Below, in pieces: positions 11,277 to 64,000 of a DNA stretch of 64,000 nt. Source of the stretch: a phage; sequence record PZ386967.1; one strand, written 5' to 3'. Below the pieces are notes generated by a model. That model was not told the origin of the DNA. It searched no databases and saw only the letters and a list, made by a program, of their open reading frames with translations. The position numbers and the translations under genes were made by a program. Positions within the stretch are counted from its first letter, which is position 1, and each line of letters opens with the position of its first letter.

Positions 11277-11358
11277 TTTTAGCAGCCACAGCCCTCGAAA
11301 GGGGGCTTGATTTTGAACTACTAAGTAATTTCAACTTAACTGAATATCAATGTAAGGA

Positions 11359-14040: not shown

Positions 14041-14089
14041 TCATTCCATAAGCAGCACAACATTGACTCTGAAATGAAGGAAATATATC

Positions 14090-33259: not shown

Positions 33260-33318
33260 TTCTATAACTTTGGGCGGGGTATGATTACCCCGTCTATTTG
33301 AAATGCAGGAACTATACC

Positions 33319-33825
33319 ATGACCGATCAACAAATTCAAGATTTATTTTACCTCGTCCATGATAAGTCCCACATCATGCGCCCCGGTACTGTTTCCCCTG
33401 CCGTCCGTGATCTGGTGCAAGAATTGCGCGAACCACAGACGACCACACTTTATCGCGGGTTGCCTAAAGAGGACGTTGCGCGTTTAGAGATGATGTTTGA
33501 ACGAGGCGACATGTTCCAGACATGGGATTCTTGCCTTAGCTTCAGTGAACTGAAGCATGTGGCCAAAAAATTTTCTAAATCGTACGGAACCCAAGCTGTT
33601 GCCCGCATTTGTTACAAACATCGAAACAGACTCCCGGAGGGGCTTAATGTCTATGGTTCTCTAGAAAAATTTGTGAACAAAGGCGATGAATCAGAAATGG
33701 ATATGCTGGACTTGGCGTCCATGGAGAAAGAATGGATATTCTGCCAGCCTCGCGTCATACCAGTTTCAAGAAAAATGGCAACAGACGGCACGATGGTTTT
33801 TACCGTATCACTTGTTACCCTATAA
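33319..33825 (+). CDS. Hypothetical protein (168 aa)
   Basis: ATG in conserved GGAACTATACCATG context; flanked by identical 31-bp hairpin-leader repeats. Confidence 0.5.
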   Translation: MTDQQIQDLFYLVHDKSHIMRPGTVSPAVRDLVQELREPQTTTLYRGLPKEDVARLEMMFERGDMFQTWDSCLSFSELKHVAKKFSKSYGTQAVARICYKHRNRLPEGLNVYGSLEKFVNKGDESEMDMLDLASMEKEWIFCQPRVIPVSRKMATDGTMVFTVSLVTL

Positions 33826-33877
33826 ACCCACGGCGGGGTATGATTACCCCGTCTATTTGAAACCAAGAGACTATATC

Positions 33878-34255
33878 ATGAAAAAGTTAATCCTCGCTGT
33901 TGCCCTGCTGGGCGCTTCCTTTGCTGCTGTTTCCGCCCCTCCTGTCATCACCGGAGTGTCTACCAACGGTGTTTATGCTTTCAAGGCGTATGGCCAAGAC
34001 CTCGTTCTGTATAAGAACGGGAAGATGATTGAGCGCTGCGTATCAGACGACGTGAATCGTGGGATCGACAATCAGGGTAGCCCATACGTCCTGGACATCT
34101 ATTCCTGCTCCAACGGGACGAAGTCCTTTGGCGTCAAGACCTTTGGCAACGTCGCCGACGGTGGCTGGGGCTTCATGTTCGAAACCCGCAACCACCACCC
34201 GGTCAAGACCATGCAAGAAGAGTTCTTGATCTCTGTCGGGGGTGGAACATTATGA
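33878..34255 (+). CDS. Secreted protein with signal peptide (125 aa)
   Basis: MKKLILAVALLGASFAAVSA|PP signal peptide; conserved start context. Confidence 0.5.
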   Translation: MKKLILAVALLGASFAAVSAPPVITGVSTNGVYAFKAYGQDLVLYKNGKMIERCVSDDVNRGIDNQGSPYVLDIYSCSNGTKSFGVKTFGNVADGGWGFMFETRNHHPVKTMQEEFLISVGGGTL

Positions 34256-41990: not shown

Positions 41991-42782
41991 ATGGGAATGA
42001 ACTTCGTGGACAGAGGGGAGAATGTCGTCAAATATTTCACGGACGAAGACAACGAGCGTGTCATTAGTATCCTTCGTGATTGGATCCCCGCCCGCAAGAA
42101 AGCACTTGCTGAGGGCACCAGGCTTCCAAAGATCCCCAACTATGTTGCTCTGCAGGTCCAGCGCATCATCACCAAGATGAGTACCCGCTACAACTATCGC
42201 GACTATCCCTTCCGTGAAGACATGGTCTCTGAAGCAATAGTCAACATCCTGCGCTACCTCCACACCTTTGACGTCGAACACATTGGAAAGAAAGGGAAGA
42301 TCAACTTCTTCTCTTGGGTGACCATGTGCGCTGATCGATCATTCGCTCGTAAACTGAATATCGAAGAAGAACACACGTACATCAAATTGCGCTCATTTGA
42401 AGAGGCGGGTGGGTTCGCAGGCCTGGCAGACGATCCCGACTTCCAACAAGAGATCTTTGTTGACGCGACAGGGATTGGTATGGACTTCCGTGAGCGTATC
42501 GGTAACTTTGAGAACAAAAAGGACGCTCAAAGGCAGAAGGAGCGAGAGAAGGTGGAGGCGGCTCGTCTCGCAGAATCGAATAAAAAGATTGCGAAAGGCA
42601 TACTTCAATACATGGCGCAGGCTAAGAATACGGTAACAGCGCAGGCCGAAGACAATTCAGATCAGGACTTTGGCAAAACCCAATTCAATCTGGAAGATGA
42701 TATCTGTGCGATGGAACCAGATTGGGAAGCCCTCAAACAAAGATTAGAAGAACGGGAGAAAAAGAATAATGGCGATTGCTAA
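41991..42782 (+). CDS. gp55: Late sigma factor (gp55-like) with acidic/coiled C-terminal extension
   Basis: ISILRDWIPARKKALAEG...MVSEAIVNILRYLHTFDVEH...FFSWVTMCADRSFARKL parallels T4 gp55 LQAIIDWKTEL...[20 protein letters not shown]...AYITQACFNAFVQRIKK. Confidence 0.7.
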   Translation: MGMNFVDRGENVVKYFTDEDNERVISILRDWIPARKKALAEGTRLPKIPNYVALQVQRIITKMSTRYNYRDYPFREDMVSEAIVNILRYLHTFDVEHIGKKGKINFFSWVTMCADRSFARKLNIEEEHTYIKLRSFEEAGGFAGLADDPDFQQEIFVDATGIGMDFRERIGNFENKKDAQRQKEREKVEAARLAESNKKIAKGILQYMAQAKNTVTAQAEDNSDQDFGKTQFNLEDDICAMEPDWEALKQRLEEREKKNNGDC

Positions 42783-43884
42783 AATCGGCGATCTGCATAT
42801 CGGGAGCCGTAATGGTTCCCGATACGTTCGCGACTTCATCAAGAACTACCTCATCAATTATTTCATCCCTGAACTTGTCGCCTCCGACATCCATGAGGTC
42901 TGGCAGTTTGGTGACACATTTGACGTCCGCAAATTCATGTACGGGCGTGACAAGGACTGGTTGAAAGATGAGCTGACTCCGGCGCTGAAAGCTGCTGGGA
43001 TCAAGTGGAATGGTATTGTTGGCAACCACGACATCACCCTGGAAGAGTCTAACCGCATCAACTGGCCATCCTACCTGAACGAACTCGACCCAGATGTATA
43101 CTGCTATTATAGCGAACCGACCGAAGTGATGATCGAGGGTGTCAAGACTCTGCTCCTACCGTGGATCAACAAGGAGAACTATGATGCGTCTATTAAGGCG
43201 TTACAAGATACAGACGCCGAGTACTGTTTTGCGCATCTGGAGTTGGCAGGGTTCAAAATGTACCAGTCCTCTACTTGTGATCACGGTCAGATCGACGTTG
43301 CGTTGCTTTCCAAGTTTACCAGGGTCGACACGGGGCATTTCCATACCCGTTCGATGGAAGGTAACATTCAGTATCTTGGGACTCCGTATCACCTGAACTG
43401 GGAAGACTACAAAGATGGCACCAACCGTGGCTTCTATGTGGACGACATGCGCGGCGGTGAGGTATTCATTCCCAACAGCGAGCACCAGACGTTGTTCCGC
43501 TATGTGGAATATGATTACACCAAGTTGTCCTCAGACGATGAGGGTAACTGGATCGACCCGGAATGGTTGAACACAGGCTTGGGTATTGAAGGGCAAATCG
43601 TTAAGGTTATTGTACAGAATCGCGACAATGCTAAGCATTATGAAAAGTTCTGTGATGCAATGAAGCGATGCAAGTGTATTGACTACAACTTCATCGACCG
43701 GACTATTACCGTAGCGGCTGAGAAGGTTGAGGTCACCGAAGAGATGGTGGCAACCGACGCAGTGGAAGTCCTAAAGAAGGATATCCGCGCCGGGAACAAC
43801 ATCCAGCGCCCTGAAAACGTCTGCAAGCTAGCAGAGCACTTCTACAACGCTGCCCAACAACGCCTGAATACACTGGATGCATAA
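42769..43884 (+). CDS. gp47: Recombination endonuclease subunit (gp47-like, Mre11/SbcD family)
   Basis: IGDLHIG, QFGDTFDVRKF, IVGNHD, GHFH and YLGTPYHL match T4 gp47 phosphoesterase motifs. Confidence 0.85.
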   Translation: MAIAKIGDLHIGSRNGSRYVRDFIKNYLINYFIPELVASDIHEVWQFGDTFDVRKFMYGRDKDWLKDELTPALKAAGIKWNGIVGNHDITLEESNRINWPSYLNELDPDVYCYYSEPTEVMIEGVKTLLLPWINKENYDASIKALQDTDAEYCFAHLELAGFKMYQSSTCDHGQIDVALLSKFTRVDTGHFHTRSMEGNIQYLGTPYHLNWEDYKDGTNRGFYVDDMRGGEVFIPNSEHQTLFRYVEYDYTKLSSDDEGNWIDPEWLNTGLGIEGQIVKVIVQNRDNAKHYEKFCDAMKRCKCIDYNFIDRTITVAAEKVEVTEEMVATDAVEVLKKDIRAGNNIQRPENVCKLAEHFYNAAQQRLNTLDA

Positions 43885-46222
43885 CATGACTCAAAGTACA
43901 GATATCCTGGCCAAATTTGGCAATCTTTTGAAGGAAGCTGACACCCCGGTAGAGGTGGAAGTCCCATTTGAAGTGCGTGATAACGTTACGCACAAACTGA
44001 CTTTCCGCAAAGGTCGCGCCAAGAACTTCCGCTCCATCGGCAATCAGTTCATGGAGATTGATTATCAGCGCAACCCAGCCACCCTTGTCACGTCTGATGA
44101 CAACGGCGCGGGTAAATCCACGATGTTGGTATGGCTGCTGTTCTTCGTACTGTACAACACCACGTACAGTAAGAAGGAGAAGAAGGCAGGCCTGGTTAAC
44201 TCACAAAGCCGCAAGGAATGTGTGGGTGAGGTAGAGTTTGCCTGTCGTGGTAGTGAATGGAAAGTTCGCCGGGGTATCAAGCCCGACTTTGTTGAAGTCT
44301 ACCAGATGGTGGACGGTAAGTGGTTGCAGATCGATAACGAAGCAGCCAAGGCCGACATGAACAAGTACATCGTGAACCTCATCGGTGTAGACCAGAAGAT
44401 GTTTGAGAACTCTCTGGTGCTGGGTAAAGAGAAGTTCATTCCGTTTACGGAGATGTACACTGCCGACCGTCGCGCCATGGTGGAGACAATTTGGGACTTG
44501 GGCTTCTTCAGCCTGATGAACGAAGATGTCAAGGCCGCCATCAAAAAGGCAAATACAACTCTGGACTCCATATCTAACGAATGCGCACTGAAGGTTATTG
44601 ACCACACCAACAAGAAGACGCAGCTTCAGCAGATCGAGCAATCCAACGCTCTGATCCAACAGCAGTCGGCCGATATCCTTGTACAGCAACAGGAAGCCCT
44701 GAATTCCCTGGATGCTGACATCGCTTCCCAGAACGAAGAGCGCAGCCGCCTCACTGCGGTTGAGTTCGAAGCCACCCAGGAAATGAAGACGGTAGAAAAT
44801 CGCCTGAATGATGAATCCATGGTGGAGATCGAGGCTATCAAGAAAGACTTTGATGCCAAGATCCAGGCGGTGAAGGATGCCGCTCAGGAAAAGGCCGATG
44901 ATTATGAGCGCATCGAAGTGTCTACTGCGGAGCATGAACTTCAGGTCTTGCGTGACCGTGCCTTTACAGTGGCCGAAAGCAAGAACACCCTGCTCACCGA
45001 GCGCAACACAAACCTGGACGCCCTGAACGCTGCTATTCAGCGCCGCCAGCAGGGTGAGAACTTCCGCATCAAGTTCCAGACCGAAATGGACGGACATCAG
45101 TCGGCCATCAAGCGCTTCCACGACATGGGGACTTGCCCTACCTGTACCCAACTGGTGTCTGATGACACCAAGGCGCGGATTGAGAGTGAGTACAATCCTC
45201 AGATCCAGGAACTACAGTCGAAGTTAGATCAACTAGACAAAGTTACCGCCGATATCAATGTCCTGATCGATGATCACAAGGCTCAGGATGATAAGTTGGT
45301 TGCTGACATTGCTGTGTTGGACACTGAACTGGATGCAATGCGCAAGCAGGCTGACGAAATCGTTGACAACATCAAGCAGCTGCGCCGTGATATTCAAGGT
45401 TTTCATGATGCTGCCACGATTGAGTGTAATTCACTGAACCGTGAATGTCAACAGAAGATCCTTGACATCCGTAAGGCACTGAACGTTCGTTTTGAAGACA
45501 TCACTGCGTCACTACAACAAACTCGAGAGAATGCCGTCAGCGGGATTAAAGCCGTCGATGATAAGATCGCCGAGCTGAAAGCCCGTCGTGCTCCTCTCGT
45601 GGCGTCTATTGCCGATCTGGAGCGTAAACTGGCTGTACAGCCAACACCTACCACCGACCTGGAGAACTCTATCGCTGCGTTGGAAGGTGAACTGGAGTCT
45701 CTGTATGAACTCCGTGAAGATGCAGATGAGGAACTCCAGGACTTACAGCACCTGCTGTTCTTCTTGAAAGATGACCAGACCAAGGCGCGTATCATCGCCC
45801 TGTATCTGCCATTCCTCAATAGCAAGATCAACGAGTATCTTGAAGCCCTCAACATGTTCTTGGATATCGTTGTTGACGATACCTTTGAGATCACCATGAG
45901 CGCAGCAGGCCGCAAGGGGCAGAGTATCTTCTCCCTGTCTACTGGCCAACGCAGTCGTCTGAACCTGGCTGTGACATTAGCTCTGCGCGATGTGGCTAAC
46001 CTCAAGGCATCGGTGCAATGTAACCTGTTTGTCCTGGATGAAATCCTTGAGAACATGAGCGAGCGCGGGGTGCAGGAATCGGTTGAGATGTTGAAGCATA
46101 AGTTCGGCGGGAACAACCTGTTTGTTATTAGCCAGCGCGAACAGGAGTTCCAAGAATACTTCCAACACAACATTCGCTACGGCCTGCGAAACGGCCTGAC
46201 TGAAGTTATCAAGAAGGATTGA
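43877..46222 (+). CDS. gp46: Recombination endonuclease ATPase subunit (gp46-like, Rad50/SbcC family)
   Basis: Walker A DNGAGKST, long coiled-coil with zinc-hook CPTC, signature STGQRSRLNLA, Walker B FVLDEIL. Confidence 0.85.
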   Translation: MHNMTQSTDILAKFGNLLKEADTPVEVEVPFEVRDNVTHKLTFRKGRAKNFRSIGNQFMEIDYQRNPATLVTSDDNGAGKSTMLVWLLFFVLYNTTYSKKEKKAGLVNSQSRKECVGEVEFACRGSEWKVRRGIKPDFVEVYQMVDGKWLQIDNEAAKADMNKYIVNLIGVDQKMFENSLVLGKEKFIPFTEMYTADRRAMVETIWDLGFFSLMNEDVKAAIKKANTTLDSISNECALKVIDHTNKKTQLQQIEQSNALIQQQSADILVQQQEALNSLDADIASQNEERSRLTAVEFEATQEMKTVENRLNDESMVEIEAIKKDFDAKIQAVKDAAQEKADDYERIEVSTAEHELQVLRDRAFTVAESKNTLLTERNTNLDALNAAIQRRQQGENFRIKFQTEMDGHQSAIKRFHDMGTCPTCTQLVSDDTKARIESEYNPQIQELQSKLDQLDKVTADINVLIDDHKAQDDKLVADIAVLDTELDAMRKQADEIVDNIKQLRRDIQGFHDAATIECNSLNRECQQKILDIRKALNVRFEDITASLQQTRENAVSGIKAVDDKIAELKARRAPLVASIADLERKLAVQPTPTTDLENSIAALEGELESLYELREDADEELQDLQHLLFFLKDDQTKARIIALYLPFLNSKINEYLEALNMFLDIVVDDTFEITMSAAGRKGQSIFSLSTGQRSRLNLAVTLALRDVANLKASVQCNLFVLDEILENMSERGVQESVEMLKHKFGGNNLFVISQREQEFQEYFQHNIRYGLRNGLTEVIKKD

Positions 46223-46224
46223 TC

Positions 46225-46389
46225 ATGAACTACGAACAAATTAAACTCGCAATACTGATCTTTGCATGCATCATTGACATCGTTGCGTTTTCTCGTGAAG
46301 TCGAAAGGAAAAACTACCTGAAATCACTGGGGTATCTCGGGTTCTCTGTCTGGTTCTGTTATCTACTTGCAGGTCAAATCCTGAAATGA
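46225..46389 (+). CDS. Small membrane protein (54 aa)
   Basis: Two hydrophobic segments; start 4 nt after the gp46 stop, stop overlaps the next ATG. Confidence 0.3.
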   Translation: MNYEQIKLAILIFACIIDIVAFSREVERKNYLKSLGYLGFSVWFCYLLAGQILK

Positions 46390-46715
46390 AAGTCGTCCAC
46401 TTCAAGAAGGAGCCATATGACGTCTACATTGGTCGGCCTGGTAAATGGGGGAACCCGTTTGAGGTCAAAGACCATGGACGAGGCGTCTGTATCGAGCTGT
46501 TTGAGGACGACCTGTATGTGCGCCTGGTTGAAGGGGATATCACTGAGGATGAACTCCTTGAGCTTGACGGGAAGGTATTGGGGTGCTGGTGTAAGCCACG
46601 CCCCTGCCACGGGGATGTTTACGTCAAAGTCATTGGTCGTATTAAACTATTCCGCAAGCTGGGTAAATCCTTTACTGAACACCTGAGACAAACATATGTC
46701 AGAATCAAAAGATGA
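46386..46715 (+). CDS. DUF4326-like protein
   Basis: YDVYIGRPGKWGNPF...CWCKPRPCHGDV pattern recalled as DUF4326. Confidence 0.45.
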   Translation: MKVVHFKKEPYDVYIGRPGKWGNPFEVKDHGRGVCIELFEDDLYVRLVEGDITEDELLELDGKVLGCWCKPRPCHGDVYVKVIGRIKLFRKLGKSFTEHLRQTYVRIKR

Positions 46716-46980
46716 AATCCAAGACTCCTGTGACATTGCAGTTGAAACCTGGAACCGTCGGAACCCGCATTACCAGGTGACTGTCACTCCGAATCGTTAT
46801 CTTGAGCAGGGCGGCCTGATTGTGGTTGATGCTGTACTCGCTTTCAACAAGTACCAAGATATGCAGATCCTGGACGGCAACTTTACCGTCGCGACCAAGA
46901 CGGCATGGGATGACCCTCTACAGTTCGTCTACGGCTGGCTGGAGTGTATCGAGGAATCCTACCACCTCATCTACGAATGA
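46696..46980 (+). CDS. Hypothetical protein (94 aa)
   Basis: ORF followed by a hairpin plus T-tract at 46987-47016. Confidence 0.4.
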   Translation: MSESKDEIQDSCDIAVETWNRRNPHYQVTVTPNRYLEQGGLIVVDAVLAFNKYQDMQILDGNFTVATKTAWDDPLQFVYGWLECIEESYHLIYE

Positions 46981-47077
46981 GGCTGAAGGGCACTAAATAT
47001 CACGTGCCCTTTATCTTTTAACCCCTGTCAGGAGGCTCAAGCGAGCTGCAAGTCGACAAAACATAAGGAACGCCATC

Positions 47078-47692
47078 ATGACGATGACAACGTTGAAGGC
47101 CATGGCCTTGTCCGTGACCTTTACCATTGCCAGCGGGAATGTGCACGCTTCCCAAAGTACCACCCAATGTGATTATAATTTCTCCGAGCAACAACTCAAT
47201 ACACTGGCAACTGCCTACCATGTAGGCAAGACACAAGACCTTGGTTACACCCTGGCTGCAATATCCTGGCGAGAGAGCCGCGCTGGTGAAGATGTAGTGT
47301 CAATGCGATACGGCCTCAAGGCGGCCAACATGGGAGCCTTTCAGAACAAGGTGAAGACAGTTGGTGATCGCGAAGGTTGTAAGAATCGCAAGTGCTATGC
47401 CAATGTCGCCATAAAGTTGCTGACCGACCAAGAATATGCCGCGCAAGCCGCCCTCGATGAGATGCAGTTCTGGCTGACCTATCACAATCAGAATATCCGC
47501 AAATCCCTCTCCTCTTACAATGCTGGCTTCGCCCGTAATCCTGCATCGAACGCTTATGCTGCCGACGTCGTGAAGAAAGCTAAATATCTTCAGAAATGTG
47601 TGTCTTTCGAAGGCCGGACCATCTCCGAGGTAGATCCTCGGGTGATCGCCATGAACAAGCACACAATAGAGAAACTGAAGAGGACAAGATAA
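47078..47692 (+). CDS. Secreted lytic-transglycosylase-like protein (SLT domain)
   Basis: Signal peptide MTMTTLKAMALSVTFTIASGNVHA|S; AISWRESRAGE (catalytic ES), MGAFQ, SYNAG resemble SLT-domain motifs. Confidence 0.5.
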   Translation: MTMTTLKAMALSVTFTIASGNVHASQSTTQCDYNFSEQQLNTLATAYHVGKTQDLGYTLAAISWRESRAGEDVVSMRYGLKAANMGAFQNKVKTVGDREGCKNRKCYANVAIKLLTDQEYAAQAALDEMQFWLTYHNQNIRKSLSSYNAGFARNPASNAYAADVVKKAKYLQKCVSFEGRTISEVDPRVIAMNKHTIEKLKRTR

Positions 47693-48330
47693 TGAACATC
47701 ACTCCATCTCAGGCCGGATATGAACATATCTTGGTCTTCATTGCTCTACAGGGTGCGAAGGAAGGCATCATCGTATCCGAGTACTCAGGCACGGTTCGCC
47801 TTGCCGATTATGTCGCACCAGAGGCATTTATCAAGAAGTGTATTGACGCATGGTGTCTCTATGCCCTCAGCACATACCCTGCTCCTCCTGAGGGTGAGCT
47901 GTTGTTTACTGTACCGACTCCGGCTGTTGGGGATACGGATGCCATCTTTGCCGATATGCTGGCGAAGGGGTATCTGGTGTATGACATCACCCACGATGTC
48001 TACTCTTTTACTTCGCTGAACACCGTGTTTGGATTCACCATCACATCTGAAGCCAACATCCCTGACTGGGGTATCTTGGCATGGGGTGTTGACGGCCTGG
48101 GTGCAACCTACGCATCGTCTGACGTCGGTGCAGTTCTGATTGATGAGGGTGTCACCATGGAGCAGTACCTTGCCCAGTTCCCTCAGCACAATATCACAGG
48201 CAGCGACATCATTTTGGTCCAGCCTGGCGCTATCGCTCTCCCCCGTTTGGTGGATGGATGGAATCCTCGGCTGAAGGGCATCATCGCAGGTATTCGATCC
48301 CACATTCCGATTGTGAATCCGACGCCGTAA
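47692..48330 (+). CDS. Hypothetical protein (212 aa)
   Basis: Start overlaps the upstream stop (TAATG). Confidence 0.45.
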   Translation: MNITPSQAGYEHILVFIALQGAKEGIIVSEYSGTVRLADYVAPEAFIKKCIDAWCLYALSTYPAPPEGELLFTVPTPAVGDTDAIFADMLAKGYLVYDITHDVYSFTSLNTVFGFTITSEANIPDWGILAWGVDGLGATYASSDVGAVLIDEGVTMEQYLAQFPQHNITGSDIILVQPGAIALPRLVDGWNPRLKGIIAGIRSHIPIVNPTP

Positions 48331-48343
48331 AATAATTCAATAA

Positions 48344-48388
48344 AAGGGGCTTTTGCCCCTTTACTTCTTCAATATCCTTCCCTATACT
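48344..48388 (+). promoter_or_regulatory. Terminator plus T4-type early promoter cassette
   Basis: Hairpin AAGGGGC-TTTT-GCCCCTT, then -35 TTTACT (48360-48365), 17 bp, -10 TATACT (48383-48388); conserved leader. Confidence 0.55.
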
Positions 48389-48436
48389 TCATTCCATAAG
48401 CAACACAACACCAACTTGAAAAGCAGGAACTACACC

Positions 48437-48712
48437 ATGAAAATTATCCTCGACGCATATATCCGCCACGGTCAGAAATACCTGATGGCCAAGGTTTACG
48501 ACGGCGAAGAATTGATCCACGCCCAGACCGCCCCAGCTGCCCAGCTGCGAGAAATCATGTCACGCGACTTCCCTGGTGTTGAAATGGTAGAGCCTACCAA
48601 CCAGGCCGAAGTAGACAAAGAGTGGGAGCGCGAATGGAGTCCAGCGGCTATCGCTCGGGCTGAAAAGAATTGGTCTAACCGCGAAAACGCAAACCGCCCT
48701 TTCCGCCGTTAA
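48437..48712 (+). CDS. Hypothetical protein (91 aa)
   Basis: ATG in conserved GGAACTACACCATG context. Confidence 0.45.
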   Translation: MKIILDAYIRHGQKYLMAKVYDGEELIHAQTAPAAQLREIMSRDFPGVEMVEPTNQAEVDKEWEREWSPAAIARAEKNWSNRENANRPFRR

Positions 48713-48734
48713 TTTGAACCGAAGGAACTATATC

Positions 48735-49070
48735 ATGACACAACTCAAGAACTTCACCGCCGATGACATGTTTGCCTTCCAGGGTGCTGAGCACTTTGCT
48801 GACGGCTCCGTACCTCGCATCTACTACTTCTCCGACGAAGAAATGGAAGATTTCTTCGCCCTGATGGAAAAGGACTACGAACCAGACGACTTCGTTTATA
48901 TCATCCATCACGCCGAAGGACTGACATTGGGCTGGACGGCCAACAATGAACCAGAAGAAGTAAACTTCCCTGAAGGTATCATGTCAGAGCGCGTCGAATA
49001 TCTACTGGAAGCCCTGGACCCCCACACCCTCCCGCTCTGGGCGATGTCTGTAGCCCAAGTTCAAAAATAA
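48735..49070 (+). CDS. Hypothetical acidic protein (111 aa)
   Basis: ATG in conserved GGAACTATATCATG context. Confidence 0.45.
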   Translation: MTQLKNFTADDMFAFQGAEHFADGSVPRIYYFSDEEMEDFFALMEKDYEPDDFVYIIHHAEGLTLGWTANNEPEEVNFPEGIMSERVEYLLEALDPHTLPLWAMSVAQVQK

Positions 49071-49145: not shown

Positions 49146-52130
49146 ATGTCAAAGCCAAGTTTCCTCCAGTTCATGCAGGAAAGAGATCAGTTGGACGAAG
49201 CGTTCAACTCCGCTCCGTATGAGCTGACCATGGGTAAGAAGAACGCAGGCGATGTGTTCTTCACCTTCGTCGACGAAGATGATAAGGAATACCGCATTCA
49301 GTTCTATACTCCTCAGGGACTGGGCAAGAGCGTTCGTCAGGTTTTCATCGGCCAGAAGCGCGGCTCCGTCTATCCTGACGCCATCGCTCGCTTCAAGAAC
49401 CCAATGCGCGTTATTGCTTCCATGATCGAAGCGACCAAACAATTCATGGCGACTCCTCTGGGCAAAACTATCGATGGCTATGCTGTCAACTTCTCGAAGA
49501 AAGCGCTGGATCGCGGTATGACCCTGATTCCTAAGATCATCCGCCAGTCCGGTCTGAAGCAGAAACTGAATGTCATGGACCTGACCTACGCGCCTGTCCC
49601 TGACCGTGGTTATGTGTGGCTAGTTCGTAAGGGCAAAGATCCGGCTCAGGTATTCGACGGTCCGAAGATGCAGGGTATCACCTGGGATGATCCAGACAAG
49701 GTCGGTGACGTTCCGGTTCAGAACAATACTCCGGATGTGGGTGTGTCATCTTCTGTTGATAATTCCAACGGATGGAAATTAACTTCAAACGGGGATCAGC
49801 CCATGTTGATATGGGCTGGTAAGGAGAGAGGCCGCACGAATACGGCAAATATCGCTCCCCACTACAATGAGCCGGGCGTGTATGTTGGCGCATACATGAA
49901 TGAGAAACCTGTGCGTGGGCAAAGTGCTGATTTCATTGCTCGTCAGTTGAAATTACCACAAGTCCCTATCAGTATCCTGAATGATTTCACCACGGCGTCC
50001 ACAAAATTTTGGAAAGGTTCTCAACAGAAATCTGCGCCTGTTGTGCCGGCAGGTTCGGACAGAAATAACCCAGCCAACATTATCGGTTCTGGAACTGCTG
50101 TTATTGATGCCAAACGGCTTGGTGCTCAGGAAGTAAACGTGGAACGATTCAAAAACGGCGTTCGCATGCGTTCTCGAAACGGTGACGTCGACATCAGTAT
50201 TTCTGACCCAGACTTTTCAAATGCAGCAAGTGCGGCTGATGCTGCCACAGCCTCTGTTGTGGTCAAGAACGGGCGTTACGAAGGTGCCATCAATTCAAAG
50301 CGCAAGATTGCCCGCACCTCGAACGAGCAGGGTACTGAATGGGATATCATCGGTGTCAACGGGGAAACCCTTGTCTCTATCAAGTTGAACAAAGTGTCTA
50401 AATCCACATCAGATTCGACCGAGGGTGCAACCAGTGTTGATCAATTACGTGACAGCGGTTTCATCGCTCGTGTTCTGGGTATCATTGATACCAACGTTGG
50501 GCTGGACACTTCTATTCTTCCTGGTGAAAACATCCGTCGCGTGGGCGCTGGTCGTTACACGACGGCAGGCGGGTTGGTTATCGTTGTCAACTTCACAAAC
50601 GTCCTCGCTGGTTTCGTTCAATACTCAGTTTTCAGCGAAATTGCTGAAGAGGAGAACGTGGCCAAAGGTAGCGCCCGTGACGTCGCCAAGGCGGTAATTG
50701 CGTCCATCTTTGAGGTTGCTAAGACCCAGTACACTGGCAAATGGGAAATTAGCGCAGTGCCAACAAGCGCTCCATATCCTATCAAAGCCATTCGCCGTTC
50801 TCGGGGCTGGGGTTATGTGGAAACCGCAAACTGGACTCTGACAGTGTCCGACGCTGTCCTGAATCGTGTGAAGCCAGGGAACACTGCTCTACTGGAACTC
50901 ATCAAAGAACCTCCGCGTGGCAAGCACCCGCTGGAAATCATCCCAGAGAAGGGCGACAAGACCCTGATGCTGAAAGATCGTATCACCGGGGCCATCTATG
51001 GTTCTATCGACCTGAATGCCCAAGGCGCTGATCTGGTCAACTCTGGAACCCTGAAGATACCAAGCAACGCCATGGTGTTTGGTGAGACTGTCAACGGTAT
51101 GTCCATTCGGTGGGATGTCAATTTCCCCGAAACGGGAAAATACGCCGGTACTTCTATGATAACCAACGTGACCTATTACTACGACAAAGGTAAAGTTGCA
51201 TTCACCCCAATTGTCTCTCAGAAAGGGCGTACCCTGAACAATCCGAAGACATATGAACTTCCTTTAAACAAAGATATGGTCCAGAGTGTGATTGATGAGA
51301 TTTCATCAAAAATGGTATATCTTTCCAGAAACCTCCAACAGTTGAAAAGTCAGTCATACAACCCAAACCAGGTGTTCTTGAACGATATAACCATCACGGA
51401 TAAAGGTGAAGTGATTTGGAATGATTACAACTTGTCTGACGGCAAAGTTACACAAATTATGCTGTCCATGATAAGCGCAGAAAATAAACGCCTGGAGAAA
51501 GTAGCAAACACGCCGGATATCAATATCACATTGCCCAAGAAACAAGCTGAAGTGGTAGAATTTATAAACCGGATGATCGATGTCGATCTCACCCCTTATG
51601 TGAGAACCCCCAAAAAACGTGATGTGGTATTATTTGACTCTTCTGAATTGTCGATAAACCAACTCAACAACATAGAACGCCTGGGAAGAGAAACAGGAAA
51701 ATGGTCTCTTCAGCCAAACGGTGGTATGGGTCATGCACTACTTCTGAAAAGCACGTCGCACAATCCGAAGGACGACCTTGCGGCATACGCCGACTCCATT
51801 CGCGACAACGCACCAAAAGGTCGCGACCTGGATTGGCAGATCTATGCAAGCCGTGATGGTCAGACTCTGAACGTGGACTGGGATATCACCTTCCGCCGCA
51901 ACACAACTGAAGGGGCATATCGCGAGTTCAAAGCTCAGATTGACCGCGCCAACCAGTACCTGCAGACACTGTACCGGGATGCGAAGTCCAAGGGTTACAA
52001 CCCGACTGAACCAAACCTGATGACTCTGGATAGCGCCCAGCAGTCTGACCAGTGGGCACGAGACTACGGGGAAGGCGCATACAGCGAGTACGAGCAGTCC
52101 CTGGGTGGCAACATGCAGATTAAGATCTGA
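49146..52130 (+). CDS. Large (994 aa) protein with internal-protein-like N-terminal capsid targeting sequence; candidate packaged/injected protein
   Basis: N-terminus MSKPSFLQFMQERDQLDE|AF resembles the T4 targeting sequence with L-x-E cleavage motif; RBS AGGAGA; no catalytic family recognised. Confidence 0.55.
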   Translation: MSKPSFLQFMQERDQLDEAFNSAPYELTMGKKNAGDVFFTFVDEDDKEYRIQFYTPQGLGKSVRQVFIGQKRGSVYPDAIARFKNPMRVIASMIEATKQFMATPLGKTIDGYAVNFSKKALDRGMTLIPKIIRQSGLKQKLNVMDLTYAPVPDRGYVWLVRKGKDPAQVFDGPKMQGITWDDPDKVGDVPVQNNTPDVGVSSSVDNSNGWKLTSNGDQPMLIWAGKERGRTNTANIAPHYNEPGVYVGAYMNEKPVRGQSADFIARQLKLPQVPISILNDFTTASTKFWKGSQQKSAPVVPAGSDRNNPANIIGSGTAVIDAKRLGAQEVNVERFKNGVRMRSRNGDVDISISDPDFSNAASAADAATASVVVKNGRYEGAINSKRKIARTSNEQGTEWDIIGVNGETLVSIKLNKVSKSTSDSTEGATSVDQLRDSGFIARVLGIIDTNVGLDTSILPGENIRRVGAGRYTTAGGLVIVVNFTNVLAGFVQYSVFSEIAEEENVAKGSARDVAKAVIASIFEVAKTQYTGKWEISAVPTSAPYPIKAIRRSRGWGYVETANWTLTVSDAVLNRVKPGNTALLELIKEPPRGKHPLEIIPEKGDKTLMLKDRITGAIYGSIDLNAQGADLVNSGTLKIPSNAMVFGETVNGMSIRWDVNFPETGKYAGTSMITNVTYYYDKGKVAFTPIVSQKGRTLNNPKTYELPLNKDMVQSVIDEISSKMVYLSRNLQQLKSQSYNPNQVFLNDITITDKGEVIWNDYNLSDGKVTQIMLSMISAENKRLEKVANTPDINITLPKKQAEVVEFINRMIDVDLTPYVRTPKKRDVVLFDSSELSINQLNNIERLGRETGKWSLQPNGGMGHALLLKSTSHNPKDDLAAYADSIRDNAPKGRDLDWQIYASRDGQTLNVDWDITFRRNTTEGAYREFKAQIDRANQYLQTLYRDAKSKGYNPTEPNLMTLDSAQQSDQWARDYGEGAYSEYEQSLGGNMQIKI

Positions 52131-52154
52131 TCATTGAAAGCCCCTTCGGGGGCT

Positions 52155-52162
52155 TATAAATA
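52155..52162 (+). promoter_or_regulatory. T4-type late promoter (TATAAATA)
   Basis: Exact TATAAATA 26 nt upstream of the ATG at 52188. Confidence 0.5.
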
Positions 52163-52187
52163 ACTGAAATCCCCGAGGAGAGATCCA

Positions 52188-52493
52188 ATGAAACCTTTTA
52201 TCGAATATTTTAAAGAACAAGCCGCTCAACCCCAGACCCATGCTGGTGTCCAGGGTAAGACCGTATCCATCACCAAGCAAGCTGACGGCACCCAGTGGTG
52301 TTCCGGCGCTACCGTGACCCAGATTACCCCTGACAATCAGGCGGATGTATATAACCTGGAGTTAACCAACGGCAACACTATCAAGGTGAAGCTGACCCCA
52401 GACCAGACTCACGGTATCTCCCAAGGTCAGGAAGTCGTTGCTGTTCATGACGGCTTCGAATTCTTCTTTGGCAAGTCTATCGACAAAGACTAA
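52188..52493 (+). CDS. Internal-protein-like small protein with capsid targeting sequence
   Basis: MKPFIEYFKE|QAA resembles T4 IPI/IPII/IPIII N-termini; canonical late promoter and RBS GAGGAGA upstream. Confidence 0.5.
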   Translation: MKPFIEYFKEQAAQPQTHAGVQGKTVSITKQADGTQWCSGATVTQITPDNQADVYNLELTNGNTIKVKLTPDQTHGISQGQEVVAVHDGFEFFFGKSIDKD

Positions 52494-52578
52494 GTGAAAC
52501 CATCAAGATGACTCTTGTCAAGCCATGATCATAATCCCCCTTAAATACAGGGGGATTTCTTTTTCTGAGGACAACATC

Positions 52579-52932
52579 ATGGTCAATGCGAGTATTTTCA
52601 TCAACCGTGGACTGCTTGCTATAGCCCACTCTCATGCCTTGCACTTCGTTACAACATCCTATGCCAAGCACAAGGCACTCGGGGAGTTCTACGGGGAATT
52701 GGAGGGCTTGCTGGACACGTTTACCGAAGCATACATCGGTGCGGGTGGTCAGTATGTTCCATCATTCGAGAATATCAAATTGTACAACCCAGACCCTATC
52801 TCCTATATTAACAGTGTGGTGATAGACGTCGATGGCATCTACAAGCAGTGTGACTCCCACCTTCAGAGCACTCTTGACGATATCAAGACACTGTGCTACC
52901 AGACGATCTACAAACTGAAGCAGCTGTCGTAA
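52579..52932 (+). CDS. Hypothetical protein (117 aa)
   Basis: Internal ATG of the track ORF with RBS GAGGA 8 nt upstream. Confidence 0.4.
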   Translation: MVNASIFINRGLLAIAHSHALHFVTTSYAKHKALGEFYGELEGLLDTFTEAYIGAGGQYVPSFENIKLYNPDPISYINSVVIDVDGIYKQCDSHLQSTLDDIKTLCYQTIYKLKQLS

Positions 52933-55125: not shown

Positions 55126-55307
55126 TCCAGACGTGTAACATAGGGGAGGCAACTCCCCCTATCAGGTCTTTGGAGGAGATCGCAGTCATTCAATCCTCTT
55201 TGGTGCTCTCTGGGTTGCTGACACATCCAGAACAAAGTCTCCCCCAGCTCCTCGAGTAGTTCACTTTCACTTTAAATACCTCTGCATTCATTGTGGAGGT
55301 ATTTCTT

Positions 55308-56102
55308 ATGGCCATTCTAAAACTTGGCAACCGTGGCACTGAAGTGAAGGCACTTCAGAATAGCCTCAACAAAATCGGCTTCACCCTCGTCGCTGATGGT
55401 ATCTTTGGCAAGGCAACAGAGAACGCCGTCAAGACTGTTCAGGCGGGTGCGGGGCTTGTCATTGATGGTATCGTGGGTCCAAAGACCTCCTATGCTATTC
55501 GCAACGCCGGAGACGCCCATCAGGATCATCTAACTGAGTCAGACCTGATTGATGCTGCTAACGATCTGGGTGTTGACCTCGCCTCTGTCAAGGCGGTGAA
55601 TCAGGTTGAGTCGCGCGGCACGGGCTTCACCAAGTCAGGTAAGATCAAGACATTATTTGAGCGCCACATCATGTATAAGAAGCTGATGGCGAAGTTCGGA
55701 CAGGCTCGAGCGAATGCCATGGGACATATGTACCCGACGTTGGTCAGTCCTTCCGCAGGCGGGTACACGGGAGGCGACGCGGAGTTGGATCGACTTCATG
55801 CGGCCATCAACATCGATGAGGATTGTGCGTACGAGAGCGCCTCTTACGGTCTCTTCCAGATCATGGGATTCAACTGCCAGATCTGTGGATATGCCAACGC
55901 CAAGGAGATGTTCAACGACTTCCTGACAGGAGAACGTGCTCATTTGATGGCATTCGTGAAGTTCATCAAGGCTGACGCCAAGCTCTGGCAGGCTCTGAAG
56001 GACAAGAACTGGTCTGAATTTGCACGGCGCTATAATGGTCCGGCGTATGCCAAGAACCAGTACGACAAGAAGCTCGCAGCAGCATACAAGAGTTTCAGTT
56101 AA
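55308..56102 (+). CDS. Endolysin: N-terminal peptidoglycan-binding domain plus C-terminal muramidase-like domain
   Basis: LKLGNRGTEVKALQNSLNKIGF...DGIFGKATENAVKTVQ is a PG_binding_1-type repeat; C-terminal EDCAYESASYGLFQIMGFN...YNGPAY resembles DUF3380-type N-acetylmuramidases; RBS GGAGGT. Confidence 0.7.
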   Translation: MAILKLGNRGTEVKALQNSLNKIGFTLVADGIFGKATENAVKTVQAGAGLVIDGIVGPKTSYAIRNAGDAHQDHLTESDLIDAANDLGVDLASVKAVNQVESRGTGFTKSGKIKTLFERHIMYKKLMAKFGQARANAMGHMYPTLVSPSAGGYTGGDAELDRLHAAINIDEDCAYESASYGLFQIMGFNCQICGYANAKEMFNDFLTGERAHLMAFVKFIKADAKLWQALKDKNWSEFARRYNGPAYAKNQYDKKLAAAYKSFS

Positions 56103-61170: not shown

Positions 61171-61221
61171 TCCCAGTAATTCATTGGCATTCGCCACAAA
61201 TTGAACAGCAGGAACTATATC

Positions 61222-61461
61222 ATGACCGACTCTGAAGTCTACGACACCTCAATGAAATACCACGCCATGACAGCCAAACGCGGCTGTGCTGCTAACAAGG
61301 CATATTGGATAGGTGAACTCAGAACCCTCCGCGCCGTGGTCAACCACGAAATCATTATGAATCACGACAACAACGGTCAAGGTAAAGACCGAGAAGAATT
61401 GAAGGTTGCTCGTGAACGTCTTCGCTTTGGTCTGACCAAAGCCCTTGAATATGTGAAATAA
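61222..61461 (+). CDS. Hypothetical protein (79 aa)
   Basis: ATG in conserved GGAACTATATCATG context. Confidence 0.45.
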   Translation: MTDSEVYDTSMKYHAMTAKRGCAANKAYWIGELRTLRAVVNHEIIMNHDNNGQGKDREELKVARERLRFGLTKALEYVK

Positions 61462-61472
61462 GGAACTATATC

Positions 61473-61934
61473 ATGACAAACAAAGTACTCACCAACCCAC
61501 TGCACAACTTCGGTTACATTCAACTCCCTCTGGTGATCGACACCCTGTACGCCGACGACAAAGAAGAGATCTGCTGGTCACCCACCGCACTGATTGAACG
61601 CGAAATCTTCAAGTCTGTTGTTGATGTCATGTTCCGTATCGGTCGCAATGGACCTCTGGTCTACCTCGGCAAGGTGACTGAGTTGAAGACAAGCCACAAC
61701 GAACGCTTCCTTCGTATCGATACAACGGGGTGCTCTCATCAGGACTTCAACACATTGCGCAATTATGTTCTGGTCAACCGCCCGGTCAGTCAACACCGCC
61801 CGTATCTGACGTCAATGCACATCGACAATTTCATCACCGACGTACACCTCCGCGCCGAAACCCTCCATGAAGAGGAAACAGGCCGAGCTATCGACACAGT
61901 CTTAAATATGGTTGTGATCACCCTGGCGGAGTAG
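61473..61934 (+). CDS. Hypothetical protein (153 aa)
   Basis: ATG in conserved GGAACTATATCATG context. Confidence 0.45.
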   Translation: MTNKVLTNPLHNFGYIQLPLVIDTLYADDKEEICWSPTALIEREIFKSVVDVMFRIGRNGPLVYLGKVTELKTSHNERFLRIDTTGCSHQDFNTLRNYVLVNRPVSQHRPYLTSMHIDNFITDVHLRAETLHEEETGRAIDTVLNMVVITLAE

Positions 61935-62740: not shown

Positions 62741-64000
62741 TTACTCTTTGGTGCCGAAATTACCACCATTGTCTTTTAATTCTGCCTTGATGTCAATCTC
62801 ACCCGGACCCGTAGGGGATGCAGGGGTTGCACCTGACAGAGAAGAAGCGCGACCAGCACCTTCGGCATATATGATGTTACCATTGATCGTCTGAGCGACA
62901 GTCAGTTTGTCAGCGATTATCTCAGTCGTTAGAATCTTAGGAACCTTCAATGTCCCACCGACCTCCAGAGTCTCGCAGATAATGCGCAGAATATTCTGCG
63001 CTTGCATTTCCGCTAGGTCACTGAATTTCATCAGCGCTGTGCCCGCAACCACGTTGGAGTAATTGTTGGAATGCAAATGATAGACCTCACCTGTCTTGCG
63101 CTGAACTTCAGTTCCTTTGACCGTCAGGTTGTGGTCCCCGCCGACATAATAACGCTTGTTGAACATCGTCAGGTCATAGTGGTCTTTGACGGACTTGTTG
63201 ACCACATCACCATCCGGCAACATTTGCTTGTAAGACCCAGACTTATGCATCCAGTGAAGACGTTCACCACCAGGGGTGTCGTCCACTTCCATAATATGCC
63301 CAGCTCGGGACACCATGACGTTATTGTACGGGTATTTAGATCCACCCGCAGCCGGAACCATGGTTTCTCCAGTGTTGTCAATATCCTGTACTCGCCCAGT
63401 AGGAGCCGGAGTCGGTTGTTCCTTTGGGGTACGATCTGGGATAGGTTCTGACCATTTACCATTCTGCTGCGCAGGCGCGGCTGTGGCTGTGTTAGCAGGA
63501 CCAGGCCAACGATATCCCAAGACCGAAGAACGTCTGAAACGACTGACCTTCACTGAATCGGATTGGTTGCCACCAATACACCAGACATAGTTTGCATCGA
63601 ACTTCTGCACAAACGCTACGTGTCCAAATGTGGGGTTGTTACCACGCCGGAAGACTACGATAGCGCCATATTGTGGTGCTGACAGTGCAGTACCCCATGT
63701 AAGGTAAGATCGGGCAAGAGCGGAGCGTGTAGACGTGTATCCAGCCTGTATCATAACCCAACCCACGAACGCCGCACACCACGACACTTCATCTTCAGAA
63801 GCACCAAGGGAGGTTGTCTTGTGATATTCTATAATGCGCGGGTTGTTGTTGAACTTTCCGGCATACTCCTTGATACCTAATTCGCCACGAGCGATTGTCA
63901 TCCACTTCTCTGGATCATACCCACCAACAGGTGGTTGTGGATCTGGTTGTGGTTCGTCTTCTTGTTTCACAGGAACGTCAGTGACAGCGTTGTACGCCTG
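62741..64000 (-). CDS. Baseplate hub-like protein with CHAP/NlpC-P60-type peptidase domain; N-terminus beyond window end
   Basis: SWCAAFVGWVMIQAGY...GAIVVF...GHVAFV Cys-His pattern; minus-strand reading frame stays open to position 64000; adjacent to gp25. Confidence 0.55.
   Translation of the reverse strand, partial: QAYNAVTDVPVKQEDEPQPDPQPPVGGYDPEKWMTIARGELGIKEYAGKFNNNPRIIEYHKTTSLGASEDEVSWCAAFVGWVMIQAGYTSTRSALARSYLTWGTALSAPQYGAIVVFRRGNNPTFGHVAFVQKFDANYVWCIGGNQSDSVKVSRFRRSSVLGYRWPGPANTATAAPAQQNGKWSEPIPDRTPKEQPTPAPTGRVQDIDNTGETMVPAAGGSKYPYNNVMVSRAGHIMEVDDTPGGERLHWMHKSGSYKQMLPDGDVVNKSVKDHYDLTMFNKRYYVGGDHNLTVKGTEVQRKTGEVYHLHSNNYSNVVAGTALMKFSDLAEMQAQNILRIICETLEVGGTLKVPKILTTEIIADKLTVAQTINGNIIYAEGAGRASSLSGATPASPTGPGEIDIKAELKDNGGNFGTKE

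Follow-up and report, generated by a model that had tools for sequence, protein, structure and literature searches.

The window analysed here, a stretch of 64,000 nt from sequence record PZ386967.1, belongs to a ViI-like phage of the family Ackermannviridae. It encodes an SLT-like protein in addition to an endolysin, which raises the question of what an exported wall enzyme kept apart from the lysis gene would do for the phage. The original prediction described a signal-peptide protein with ES...YNAG motifs about 8 kb from the endolysin and gave it a role other than end-of-cycle lysis. The protein and its motifs were found in the window as described:

47078..47692, + strand, Vs.1-family SLT/GH23-fold protein, 204 aa
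47078-47149, + strand, predicted signal peptide (aa 1-24), with cleavage between VHA and SQ, after A24
47273-47278, + strand, catalytic motif E66-S67
47333-47344, + strand, G86-A-F-Q motif
47516-47527, + strand, Y147-N-A-G motif (residues 147-150)
47555-47557, + strand, Y160

Judged by its sequence, the ORF at 47078-47692 is the Ackermannviridae orthologue of T4 Vs.1 (PHROG 600). This family is already known and was catalogued by sequence before, and the ORF is not a new kind of protein. It matched phrog_600 with an E value of 1.8e-59, and residues 7-179 aligned to profile positions 4-176 of 178. A tblastn search with the ORF gave matches in 2,128 of 50,697 phage records, T4 vs.1 among them; T4/T4T vs.1 was matched with 27.9% identity over 72% of the query (E 9e-8). 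Direct inspection of the T4 locus and its translation showed vs.1 to be the ORF between regB and vs, and the AG3 orthologue is annotated 'Vs.1'. A marginal SLT match for Vs.1 in six T4-like phages was published in 2006 (PMC1524935). Apart from this domain note, no enzymatic, localisation or genetic data on any Vs.1-family member were found in the literature searched.

Relatives in the Vs.1 family carry the label 'lytic transglycosylase' or, wrongly, 'RegB'. A RegB identity was rejected because the T4 match sits on vs.1 and barely touches the neighbouring regB ORF at its end, because Pfam, PHROG and NCBIfam gave no RegB-type match, and because the predicted fold is GH23. NCBIfam gave zero matches for any of the six proteins searched. 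The split annotation in AG3 (orf00114.1 and orf00114) was considered as a sign of a dispensable gene and was also rejected, since the AG3 DNA aligned gap-free to the intact ORF and the split is thus an annotation artefact.

The ORF product, of about 20 kDa, has a predicted cleavable Sec-type signal peptide. Its N-terminus reads MTMTTLK-AMALSVTFTIASG-NVHA-SQ, in which a basic n-region is followed by a hydrophobic core of 13 residues and the cleavage motif V-H-A. The predicted mature protein (aa 25-204) would begin with SQSTTQ. A signal-like hydrophobic N-terminal segment was present in 87 of 90 homologues (97%), including T4 Vs.1, whose N-terminus reads MRKALLAGLLAISMMAHS, and at least one basic residue preceded the segment in nearly all of them. 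The segment was defined as a 10-aa window with a Kyte-Doolittle value of at least 1.6 within the first 40 residues, that is, by a rule and hydrophobicity and not by a trained predictor. Cysteines 33, 110, 115 and 183 of the SLT-like protein were found in every Ackermannviridae copy aligned.

The Pfam SLT profile (PF01464) matched the protein with 20.3 bits (E 4.1e-4), narrowly missing the gathering cut-off of 21.3, and precomputed PF01464 matches exist for several more distant homologues. PDB sequences queried with the single SLT-like sequence gave no match, and a family profile was needed. The AF2 model (pLDDT 89.7, pTM 0.82) had its best Foldseek matches to MltD, a GH23 chitinase and Slt70, and according to this model the protein has the goose-lysozyme/SLT (GH23) alpha-helical fold. 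The SLT fold, which the original prediction had left to structure prediction, was therefore found, and the catalytic signature was intact. The model puts E66 at the C-terminus of helix 56-67. Across the 90 homologues A60, E66, Y147 and Y160 were invariant, while S67, G86, N148 and G150 were at least 90% conserved. Furthermore, profile alignment to EtgA placed ES, G-x-x-Q, YNAG and Y all in register. The SLT-like protein has the complete signature of family-1 lytic transglycosylases: E66-S67, G-x-F-Q, Y-N-A-G and Y160. Near-invariance of the catalytic Glu and of the substrate-binding Tyr, Asn and Gly in 90 diverged homologues is what an active enzyme would be expected to show.

The protein was compared with known systems. 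T4 Vs.1 shares with it PHROG 600, a similar size (181 versus 204 aa), an N-terminal signal-like segment and the ES, G-x-F-Q, S-Y-N-x-G and Y motifs. Unlike T4 Vs.1, the Ackermannviridae copies have a C-terminal extension of about 25 aa and four conserved cysteines. They are also coupled to a DUF7270 gene, which T4 does not have, with a late-promoter-like motif 5' of the pair, whereas the T4 gene lies in a non-structural cluster. Proteins of the EtgA/IagB/IpgF/VirB1 type, of which EtgA, IagB and IpgF belong to type III secretion systems, serve trans-envelope secretion machines, whereas the SLT gene lies outside any secretion-system cluster, among genes for phage recombination, DUF7270 and virion proteins. 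In EtgA a second acidic residue, D60, is located on a beta-hairpin. The aligned position of the SLT protein is not acidic, which indicates a single-acid transglycosylase mechanism. The family-1 bacterial lytic transglycosylases Slt70, Slt, MltF and MltC, representing Pfam SLT (PF01464), are large multidomain proteins or lipoproteins, and their catalytic domains have 15-17% identity to the SLT protein. Structural likeness was much weaker for the T7 gp16 N-terminal domain and for phiKZ gp144 and gp181, which, unlike the SLT protein, are domains of large internal or tail proteins and are without Sec signals.

The original prediction had placed the SLT gene in one module with a small membrane protein and a DUF4326-like protein. 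Both are encoded nearby, upstream of the SLT gene, together with a third gene and a hairpin:

46226..46389 (ATG; TTG start at 46219), + strand, small membrane protein, 54 aa, two hydrophobic segments
46386..46715, + strand, DUF4326 protein (T4 NrdA.1 family), 109 aa, start overlapping the membrane-protein stop (ATGA)
46696..46980, + strand, 94-aa protein, closing gene of the gp47-gp46 operon, 20-nt overlap with the DUF4326 gene
46986..47019, + strand, intrinsic-terminator-like hairpin, 8-bp core stem AAGGGCAC/GTGCCCTT, 10-nt loop, then TTTATCTTTT

The small membrane protein gene, third from the end of the gp47-gp46 operon, matched PHROG 34593 (5.8e-40); the AG3 annotation gives the orthologous protein two TM helices, and Menlow is without the gene. 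The DUF4326 protein matched PF14216 with an E value of 1.4e-23 (83.8 bits, above the cut-off of 25) and also PHROG 464, and its orthologues in AG3 and Menlow are annotated NrdA.1. DUF4326/NrdA.1 has been proposed as a rhodanese-phosphatase clade with ADP-ribose-derived phosphates as substrates (PMC9503650). The predicted role of the protein is that of a cytoplasmic nucleotide/ADP-ribose-phosphate-processing domain, with no action on the wall. The 94-aa protein matched PHROG 4165 at 2.9e-50 and gave no match in the Pfam search. The hairpin at 46986..47019 had a fold energy of -17.3 kcal/mol (z -3.78) and was kept in six relatives, and Menlow independently annotates a terminator at the same place. 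This terminator-like hairpin ends the gp47-gp46 operon. The proposed module was not upheld: the upstream genes belong to the gp47-gp46 operon, as their overlapping stop and start codons indicate, and the hairpin stands between them and the SLT gene. The small membrane protein and the DUF4326 protein are unrelated passengers of this recombination-nuclease operon.

Downstream of that operon, the following features were identified around the SLT gene:

46993..46999, + strand, CTAAATA motif in the hairpin loop, putative gp55-type late promoter core
47012..47077, + strand, conserved 5' leader with ribosome-binding site AAGGA at 47066-47070
47692..48330, + strand, DUF7270 protein, 212 aa, PF23934, start overlapping the SLT stop (TAATG)
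48343..48362, + strand, terminator hairpin closing the SLT-DUF7270 unit, AAAGGGGC-TTTT-GCCCCTTT
48360-48388, + strand, separate promoter cassette TTTACT-17-TATACT, 3' of the closing hairpin

The gene partner of the SLT ORF is DUF7270, not DUF4326. PF23934 covered residues 1-212 of 212 with an E value of 4.5e-110 (366.7 bits, cut-off 27), and DUF7270 is confined to Ackermannviridae. The 1-nt overlap between the two genes was also present in CAU_YEP3, AG3, A221, Sajous1, LIMEstone1, Vi01, Det7 and Menlow. The closing hairpin had a fold energy of -14.2 kcal/mol (z -4.09), and LIMEstone1 annotates a terminator here. The SLT gene and DUF7270 form their own two-gene transcription unit, with predicted terminators on both sides. 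The original prediction was silent on 47692-48330, the last third of the interval that it covered, which is the DUF7270 gene. In the loci examined outside Ackermannviridae, Vs.1 homologues had no conserved neighbour genes. The neighbours in T4, Felix O1-like and other phages were non-structural (nucleotide-metabolism, rII and regB genes), and expression timing may therefore differ between families.

The CTAAATA motif also stands before the tail sheath (2215), tail tube (6850) and scaffold (10391) genes, at a distance of 33-49 nt from the start codon. Its presence upstream of these genes suggests that the SLT-DUF7270 unit is expressed late, on the basis of motif position and not of transcripts. 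The motif also precedes a phrog_2114/GTP-binding-domain-like gene (15477) and the DNA helicase gene (18676). The distant relative L011 retains CTAAATA, although the hairpin has moved away there. CTAAATAcCcc was listed as a regulatory motif of this phage group (PMC7283392), and in LIMEstone1 the authors placed a late promoter before the SLT orthologue. Their annotated -10 element was not adopted, as it falls on CTCATC and looks like a coordinate slip. The T4 late promoter TATAAATA had no copy upstream of the SLT gene and two copies in the whole window. A gp55 homologue is encoded at 41991-42782.

The leader is 85 nt long in the SLT unit, longer than the 33-49 nt at the structural genes, a difference that counts against the late-promoter assignment. 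The leader sequence occurs once in the window. Promoter and leader (46993-47077) were 87.6% identical to those of L011 and 95.3% identical to those of Sajous1, while the SLT coding sequence was 65.3% and 78.3% identical, respectively. A structured RNA in the leader was rejected, with a z value of +0.76 (no stable fold) and no match in Rfam.

Two other wall enzymes are encoded in the window:

55293..56102, + strand, endolysin, PG_binding_1 (PF01471, E 8.8e-15) and Muramidase (PF11860, E 6.7e-59)
62741-63970, gp5-like CHAP tail hydrolase

The endolysin is an N-acetylmuramidase whose gene follows the SLT gene at a distance of 7.6 kb, close to the one first given, and its Vi01 orthologue is annotated endolysin. 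The SLT-like protein is distinct from both the main endolysin and the tail-tip hydrolase, in agreement with the separation from the endolysin that had been predicted. A canonical holin-dependent (cytoplasmic) endolysin was rejected for this protein in view of its predicted signal peptide and the separate endolysin.

A counterpoint to a periplasmic-only protein came from the particle data of relatives. The SLT orthologue was reported in the particles of one of three phages with such data, Sajous1, and not in those of LIMEstone1 and Vi01. Sajous1 gp211, which is syntenic and 83% identical, gave 31 spectra in CsCl-purified virions, more than the tail-associated lysozyme (20) and unexpected for a purely periplasmic protein. 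The SLT protein may thus be virion-associated, perhaps held by DUF7270, and may open peptidoglycan at infection like T7 gp16 or phiKZ gp181. Its gene is translationally coupled to DUF7270, which was found in the virions of LIMEstone1 and Vi01. The late-promoter-like motif 5' of the unit and the genes downstream of it, whose products are abundant in particles (homologues of Sajous1 gp214-217 and LIMEstone ORF078-082), are consistent with this as well. However, we regard a virion role as unlikely, because a cleavable Sec signal would direct the protein to the periplasm, away from the cytoplasm in which particles of tailed phages are assembled, and a signal-like segment is retained by nearly the whole family. 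The Sajous1 study itself warns of contaminants, and ParB, SSB and glutaredoxin are also on its list. Furthermore, the orthologue was not detected among the 39 proteins of the LIMEstone1 particle list and bears no particle-associated label in the Vi01 record, and PZ386967.1 already has the CHAP tail hydrolase. T4 Vs.1 is not known to be a component of the T4 virion. It is highly improbable that a Vs.1-type enzyme matured in the periplasm joins the progeny particle at or after lysis, possibly docking on DUF7270. Such late docking would reconcile the conserved Sec signal with the Sajous1 spectra and the late-gene context, and a wall-cutting enzyme that had never passed through cytoplasmic assembly would then be part of the particle.

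Predicted export also puts the protein in the compartment where a non-catalytic or antagonistic product could bind peptidoglycan or muropeptides, or block host transglycosylases or the lysozyme of an incoming phage, and so serve superinfection exclusion or lysis-timing control. The homologue of Felix O1-like phages adjoins rIIA/rIIB about 1.2 kb from the spanins, T4 vs.1 lies about 2 kb from rI, and activity was not shown for any Vs.1-family member in the literature searched. This explanation nevertheless appears quite improbable, as the conservation of the catalytic and substrate-binding residues argues against it and no partner or immunity-like gene was conserved beside the homologue across families in the loci examined. 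The endolysin of Oenococcus phage fOg44 is released by signal-peptide export. The SLT protein likewise combines a wall-cleaving fold with a predicted signal peptide, and its unit is probably expressed late, which would suit a second, Sec-delivered endolysin acting as a true or redundant lysis enzyme. We consider this very doubtful, since a canonical endolysin with a peptidoglycan-binding domain is present in PZ386967.1 and T4 keeps vs.1 although its endolysin is the gpe lysozyme. Moreover, an exported endolysin with free activity would lyse cells too early unless it were weak or regulated, and the Vs.1 family was never annotated beside a holin in the loci examined.

Taken as a putative function, the SLT protein is probably a periplasmic lytic transglycosylase that does not depend on the holin and serves wall remodelling or lysis as an accessory. 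It would be exported by Sec and its signal cleaved, and the mature enzyme would fold in the periplasm, where its four conserved cysteines would probably form disulfides. It would cut the MurNAc-GlcNAc bonds of the host sacculus by a single-acid, non-hydrolytic mechanism and leave 1,6-anhydroMurNAc ends. The SLT-DUF7270 unit would be transcribed late from the CTAAATA element, and the enzyme would be a non-essential accessory that loosens or remodels peptidoglycan before, and in support of, lysis by holin, endolysin and spanin. The role beyond end-of-cycle lysis that had been predicted is reasonable in so far as a Sec-exported enzyme would reach the wall without a holin, but the likely late promoter leaves room for an accessory role in lysis.

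For the window itself the gains are modest: the DUF7270 pairing, the apparent late unit and the corrected 'RegB' label, a name that is wrong in many Ackermannviridae records. The Vs.1 family is among the more widespread conserved phage ORFs lacking a tested function and is present in about 4% of deposited phage genomes. Members occur in the T4-like, Felix O1-like and ViI-like groups, and metagenome sequences of the family fall into about 1,600 clusters at 50% identity. If the periplasmic transglycosylase reading is true, a Sec-delivered, holin-independent wall enzyme would be an extra step in the holin-endolysin-spanin picture of Gram-negative lysis.

The segment 46000-48500 was 94-97% identical to phages of the Ackermannviridae (Aglimvirinae/Agtrevirus-like), among them vB_CECAV_050 (Salmonella phage), A221 (Escherichia phage) and fGh-Ecl02 (Enterobacter phage). 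Members of Limestonevirus, Kuttervirus and Taipeivirus showed 78-90% identity, and 272 phage records matched the segment. Every element listed in the original prediction was located in the window. The signal-peptide ORF with ES...YNAG motifs is a 204-aa ORF carrying E66-S67 and Y147-N-A-G150, the DUF4326-like protein gave a firm Pfam match (E 1.4e-23), and the endolysin, placed about 8 kb away, was found 7.6 kb downstream of the SLT gene.

Features of the window
42769-43884, +, gp47-like
43877-46222, +, gp46-like
46226-46389, +, two-TM miniprotein
46386-46715, +, DUF4326/NrdA.1
46696-46980, +, 94-aa ORF
47078-47692, +, SLT-like ORF
47692-48330, +, DUF7270
48437-48712 and 48732-49070, +, two small ORFs
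49146-52130, +, 994-aa protein
55293-56102, +, endolysin (PG_binding_1 and Muramidase PF11860, E 6.7e-59)
62741-63970, -, CHAP-domain gp5-like tail protein

The CHAP-domain ORF, a gp5-like tail hydrolase of the phage group, runs into the window edge. Together with the SLT-like protein and the muramidase of the endolysin, it brings the predicted peptidoglycan-cleaving chemistries of the window to three, all different.

Alone, the Pfam SLT match of the 204-aa ORF was marginal, falling just under the gathering score (20.3 against 21.3 bits), so the assignment was tested independently. A profile search returned 109 homologues, of which 90 were aligned; among these, A60, E66, Y147 and Y160 were invariant, and S67, G86, N148 and G150 were at least 90% conserved. 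AlphaFold2 run on this alignment gave a model with pLDDT 89.7 and pTM 0.82; scores lay near 98 over residues 31-200, and disorder was confined to the N-terminal ~30 residues. The top Foldseek matches were MltD, a GH23 chitinase and Slt70, with weak E-values. Among PDB sequences, the family profile matched best to EtgA (E 0.0017), a transglycosylase of type III secretion, whose ES, G-x-x-Q and YNAG motifs and distal Tyr all line up with the profile. The structure prediction gave the SLT fold, whose absence had been named as grounds for abandoning the original prediction. Computationally, the ORF is modelled as an SLT-fold, GH23-type protein with an intact single-acid catalytic signature.

The N-terminus of the ORF reads MTMTTLK-AMALSVTFTIASG-NVHA/SQ (slash, predicted cleavage), and the signal-peptide call was rule-based. 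An N-terminal hydrophobic stretch was present in 87 of the 90 homologues, preceded by at least one basic residue in nearly all; T4 Vs.1 begins with MRKALLAGLLAISMMAHS. This feature is kept while the sequence varies, as expected of a signal peptide. Four cysteines kept in the Ackermannviridae copies would fit periplasmic disulfides. No lipobox was found ahead of C33, and a soluble periplasmic protein is therefore predicted. The SLT-like protein is probably exported. The GH23 fold, the signal-like N-terminus and the separate endolysin support the core reading, in which a wall enzyme other than the endolysin is exported.

By sequence, the ORF belongs to the T4 Vs.1 family. It matched PHROG 600 ('unknown function') with E 1.8e-59, and tblastn relatives occurred in 2,128 of 50,697 phage records, T4 itself among them, spanning T4-like, Felix O1-like, Vibrio, Aeromonas and Acinetobacter phages. 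An exhaustive profile search for the family gave 1,603 clusters at 50% identity, the best-scoring mostly 160-220 aa in length. The protein is 93-99% identical to deposited sequences, and the gene is an ordinary orthologue within a family that was on record before. Nolan et al. noted a marginal SLT match for this family in six T4-like phages in 2006 (PMC1524935). The literature search found no functional study of any family member. The orthologue in Shigella phage AG3 already carries the label 'Vs.1' from its authors, and some Ackermannviridae records use 'lytic transglycosylase', 'transglycosylase SLT domain-containing protein' or 'MltF'. Many others in GenBank (e.g., Maynard, Coodle, barely, moki, Guerrero, JA15, XF4, ZQ1 and EspM4VN) name it 'RegB' or 'site-specific RNA endonuclease'. 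This identity was rejected, as the T4 match sits on vs.1 and merely abuts regB, and no RegB resemblance was found by Pfam, PHROG, NCBIfam or fold. The misnaming likely stems from that adjacency, and in consequence a published virion proteome has 'RegB' among its particle proteins. In AG3 (11041-11689) the orthologue is annotated as two ORFs, orf00114.1 and orf00114. A disrupted gene was rejected, since the DNA aligns gap-free to the window's intact 615-nt ORF; on this alignment the split is an annotation artefact.

The proposed module of SLT protein, small membrane protein and DUF4326-like protein did not hold: the latter two belong to the upstream gp47-gp46 operon, with a terminator between them and the SLT gene. 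The gp46 stop, the miniprotein, DUF4326 and the 94-aa ORF overlap or abut in succession, and the run is ended by hairpin 46986-47011 (-17.3 kcal/mol, z -3.8), behind which lies a T-rich tract. Klebsiella phage Menlow, which lacks the miniprotein gene altogether, has the same terminator in its independent annotation. In T4, nrdA.1 and vs.1 lie in separate genome parts. Other phage families have different genes beside the Vs.1 homologue: Felix O1-like phages have rIIA/rIIB and a kinase, a schizoT4 phage has nrd genes, and a metagenomic relative has gp32. Iyer, Burroughs and Aravind placed DUF4326 (T4 NrdA.1) in a proposed rhodanese-phosphatase clade acting on ADP-ribose-derived phosphates (PMC9503650), and a cytoplasmic nucleotide function without link to the wall is proposed for it. 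The link of the SLT gene to these two genes is not real.

The actual unit is SLT plus DUF7270. The SLT stop overlaps the DUF7270 start (TAATG, 47690-47694), the same 1-nt overlap occurs in eight relatives of four genera, and the unit ends at a second hairpin, 48343-48362 (z -4.1). In a metagenomic relative that is distant (59% protein identity), a 120-aa gene stands between the two, so that synteny is conserved and direct coupling is not universal. DUF7270 was found only in Ackermannviridae.

CTAAATA lies at 46993-46999, inside the loop of hairpin 46986-47011. It also occurs 33-49 nt upstream of the tail sheath (2215), tail tube (6850) and scaffold (10391) start codons, and before a phrog_2114/GTP-binding-domain-like gene (15477) and a DNA helicase gene (18676); over these genes and the SLT gene (46993) the distance to the start is 33-85 nt on the + strand. 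Of the seven copies on the plus strand of the window, six are upstream of a gene start, five of them in or just past the gap after the preceding gene and the one at 15477 inside a mechanically listed ORF. The window holds eight copies against 3.4 expected by chance, the positional bias being much stronger than the count. The EspM4VN paper (PMC7283392) gives two regulatory motifs for this phage group, and CTAAATAcCcc is one of them. L011, a distant relative, has its terminator hairpin shifted upstream and still keeps GCTAAATACCA, which indicates that the motif is conserved in its own right. From its sequence context, CTAAATA looks like the late-promoter core of the phage group, replacing T4's TATAAATA, and its position suggests that the SLT-DUF7270 unit is probably expressed late.

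The 85-nt promoter-plus-leader (46993-47077) was 87.6% identical to L011, against 65.3% for the SLT and 60.7% for the 94-aa coding sequence (protein identity, 59%), and 95.3% identical to Sajous1, against 78.3% for the SLT coding sequence. The leader carries AGGAGG ~45 nt upstream of the start codon; it gave neither a stable RNA fold (z +0.76) nor an Rfam match, and it occurs once in the window. ORFs 48437 and 48732 are preceded by another repeated cassette, TTCAAT-N14-TATA(A/C)T, which places the SLT-DUF7270 unit in a different regulatory class from its neighbours.

This promoter/leader cassette, TTTACTTCTTCAATA...TATA(A/C)T...ATAAGCA..ACACCAACTTGAAA.GAAGGAACTATATCATG, stands before many small genes (4560-4640, 14013-14111, 33273-33322, 33832-33881, 48360-48440, 48689-48738, 61197-61243 and 61448-61494) and contains the TTCAAT-N14-TATAAT motif described for EspM4VN. 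Its Shine-Dalgarno-to-ATG spacing and sequence are near-identical between copies (GGAACTATATCATG). Terminator-like hairpins 46986-47011 and 52533-52557 both carry (C/T)TAAATA in the loop, so that terminator and putative late promoter overlap. An exact TATAAATA is present at 52155-52162, ahead of the 52188 ORF, which is homologous to the particle proteins Sajous1 gp215 and LIMEstone ORF080.

Genes downstream of the unit are homologues of abundant particle proteins (Sajous1 gp214-217, LIMEstone ORF078-082, Vi01_093c/094c), so the SLT gene heads a late particle-protein cluster set among replication genes. At 49146-52932 the cluster includes the 994-aa protein, a homologue of Sajous1 gp214 (196 spectra) with a partial PHROG 'internal head protein' match at residues 796-851, and also encodes a DUF5856/ferritin-like protein and a 101-aa protein that is TOBE-like. 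Among relatives the length of the 994-aa gene differs widely, from about 795 to 994 aa, and in LIMEstone1 it is two ORFs.

As the most likely mechanism, we propose that the SLT protein would be exported by Sec, its signal cleaved after A24, and would fold in the periplasm, where it would cut glycan strands non-hydrolytically. Probably expressed late with DUF7270, it may act as an accessory that loosens the sacculus without the holin, before or alongside the endolysin. That it is instead a genuine virion enzyme is unlikely. Sajous1 gp211, the syntenic, 83%-identical orthologue, was reported with 31 spectra in CsCl-purified virions, more than the tail lysozyme (20); that proteome also includes clear non-structural proteins, and the study warns of contamination. 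In LIMEstone1 the DUF7270 orthologue ORF085 was confirmed in particles and the SLT orthologue ORF086 was undetected, and in Vi01 the DUF7270 orthologue Vi01_096c is labelled 'phage associated protein' and the SLT orthologue Vi01_097c has no such label. The conserved Sec signal speaks against the protein being built into particles in the cytoplasm. Given the invariant catalytic residues, a periplasmic protein that is non-catalytic or antagonistic, an exclusion factor for example, is less likely still, and we hold a second, Sec-delivered endolysin to be just as doubtful, since the phage has a separate canonical endolysin, which speaks against a primary role in lysis.

The accessory wall enzyme proposed here belongs to a family of which one member is placed in purified particles by one proteomic data set, that of Sajous1. 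The Vs.1 family is widespread, apparently exported and, as far as its residues indicate, enzymatically intact, and its interest is general, beyond this window.
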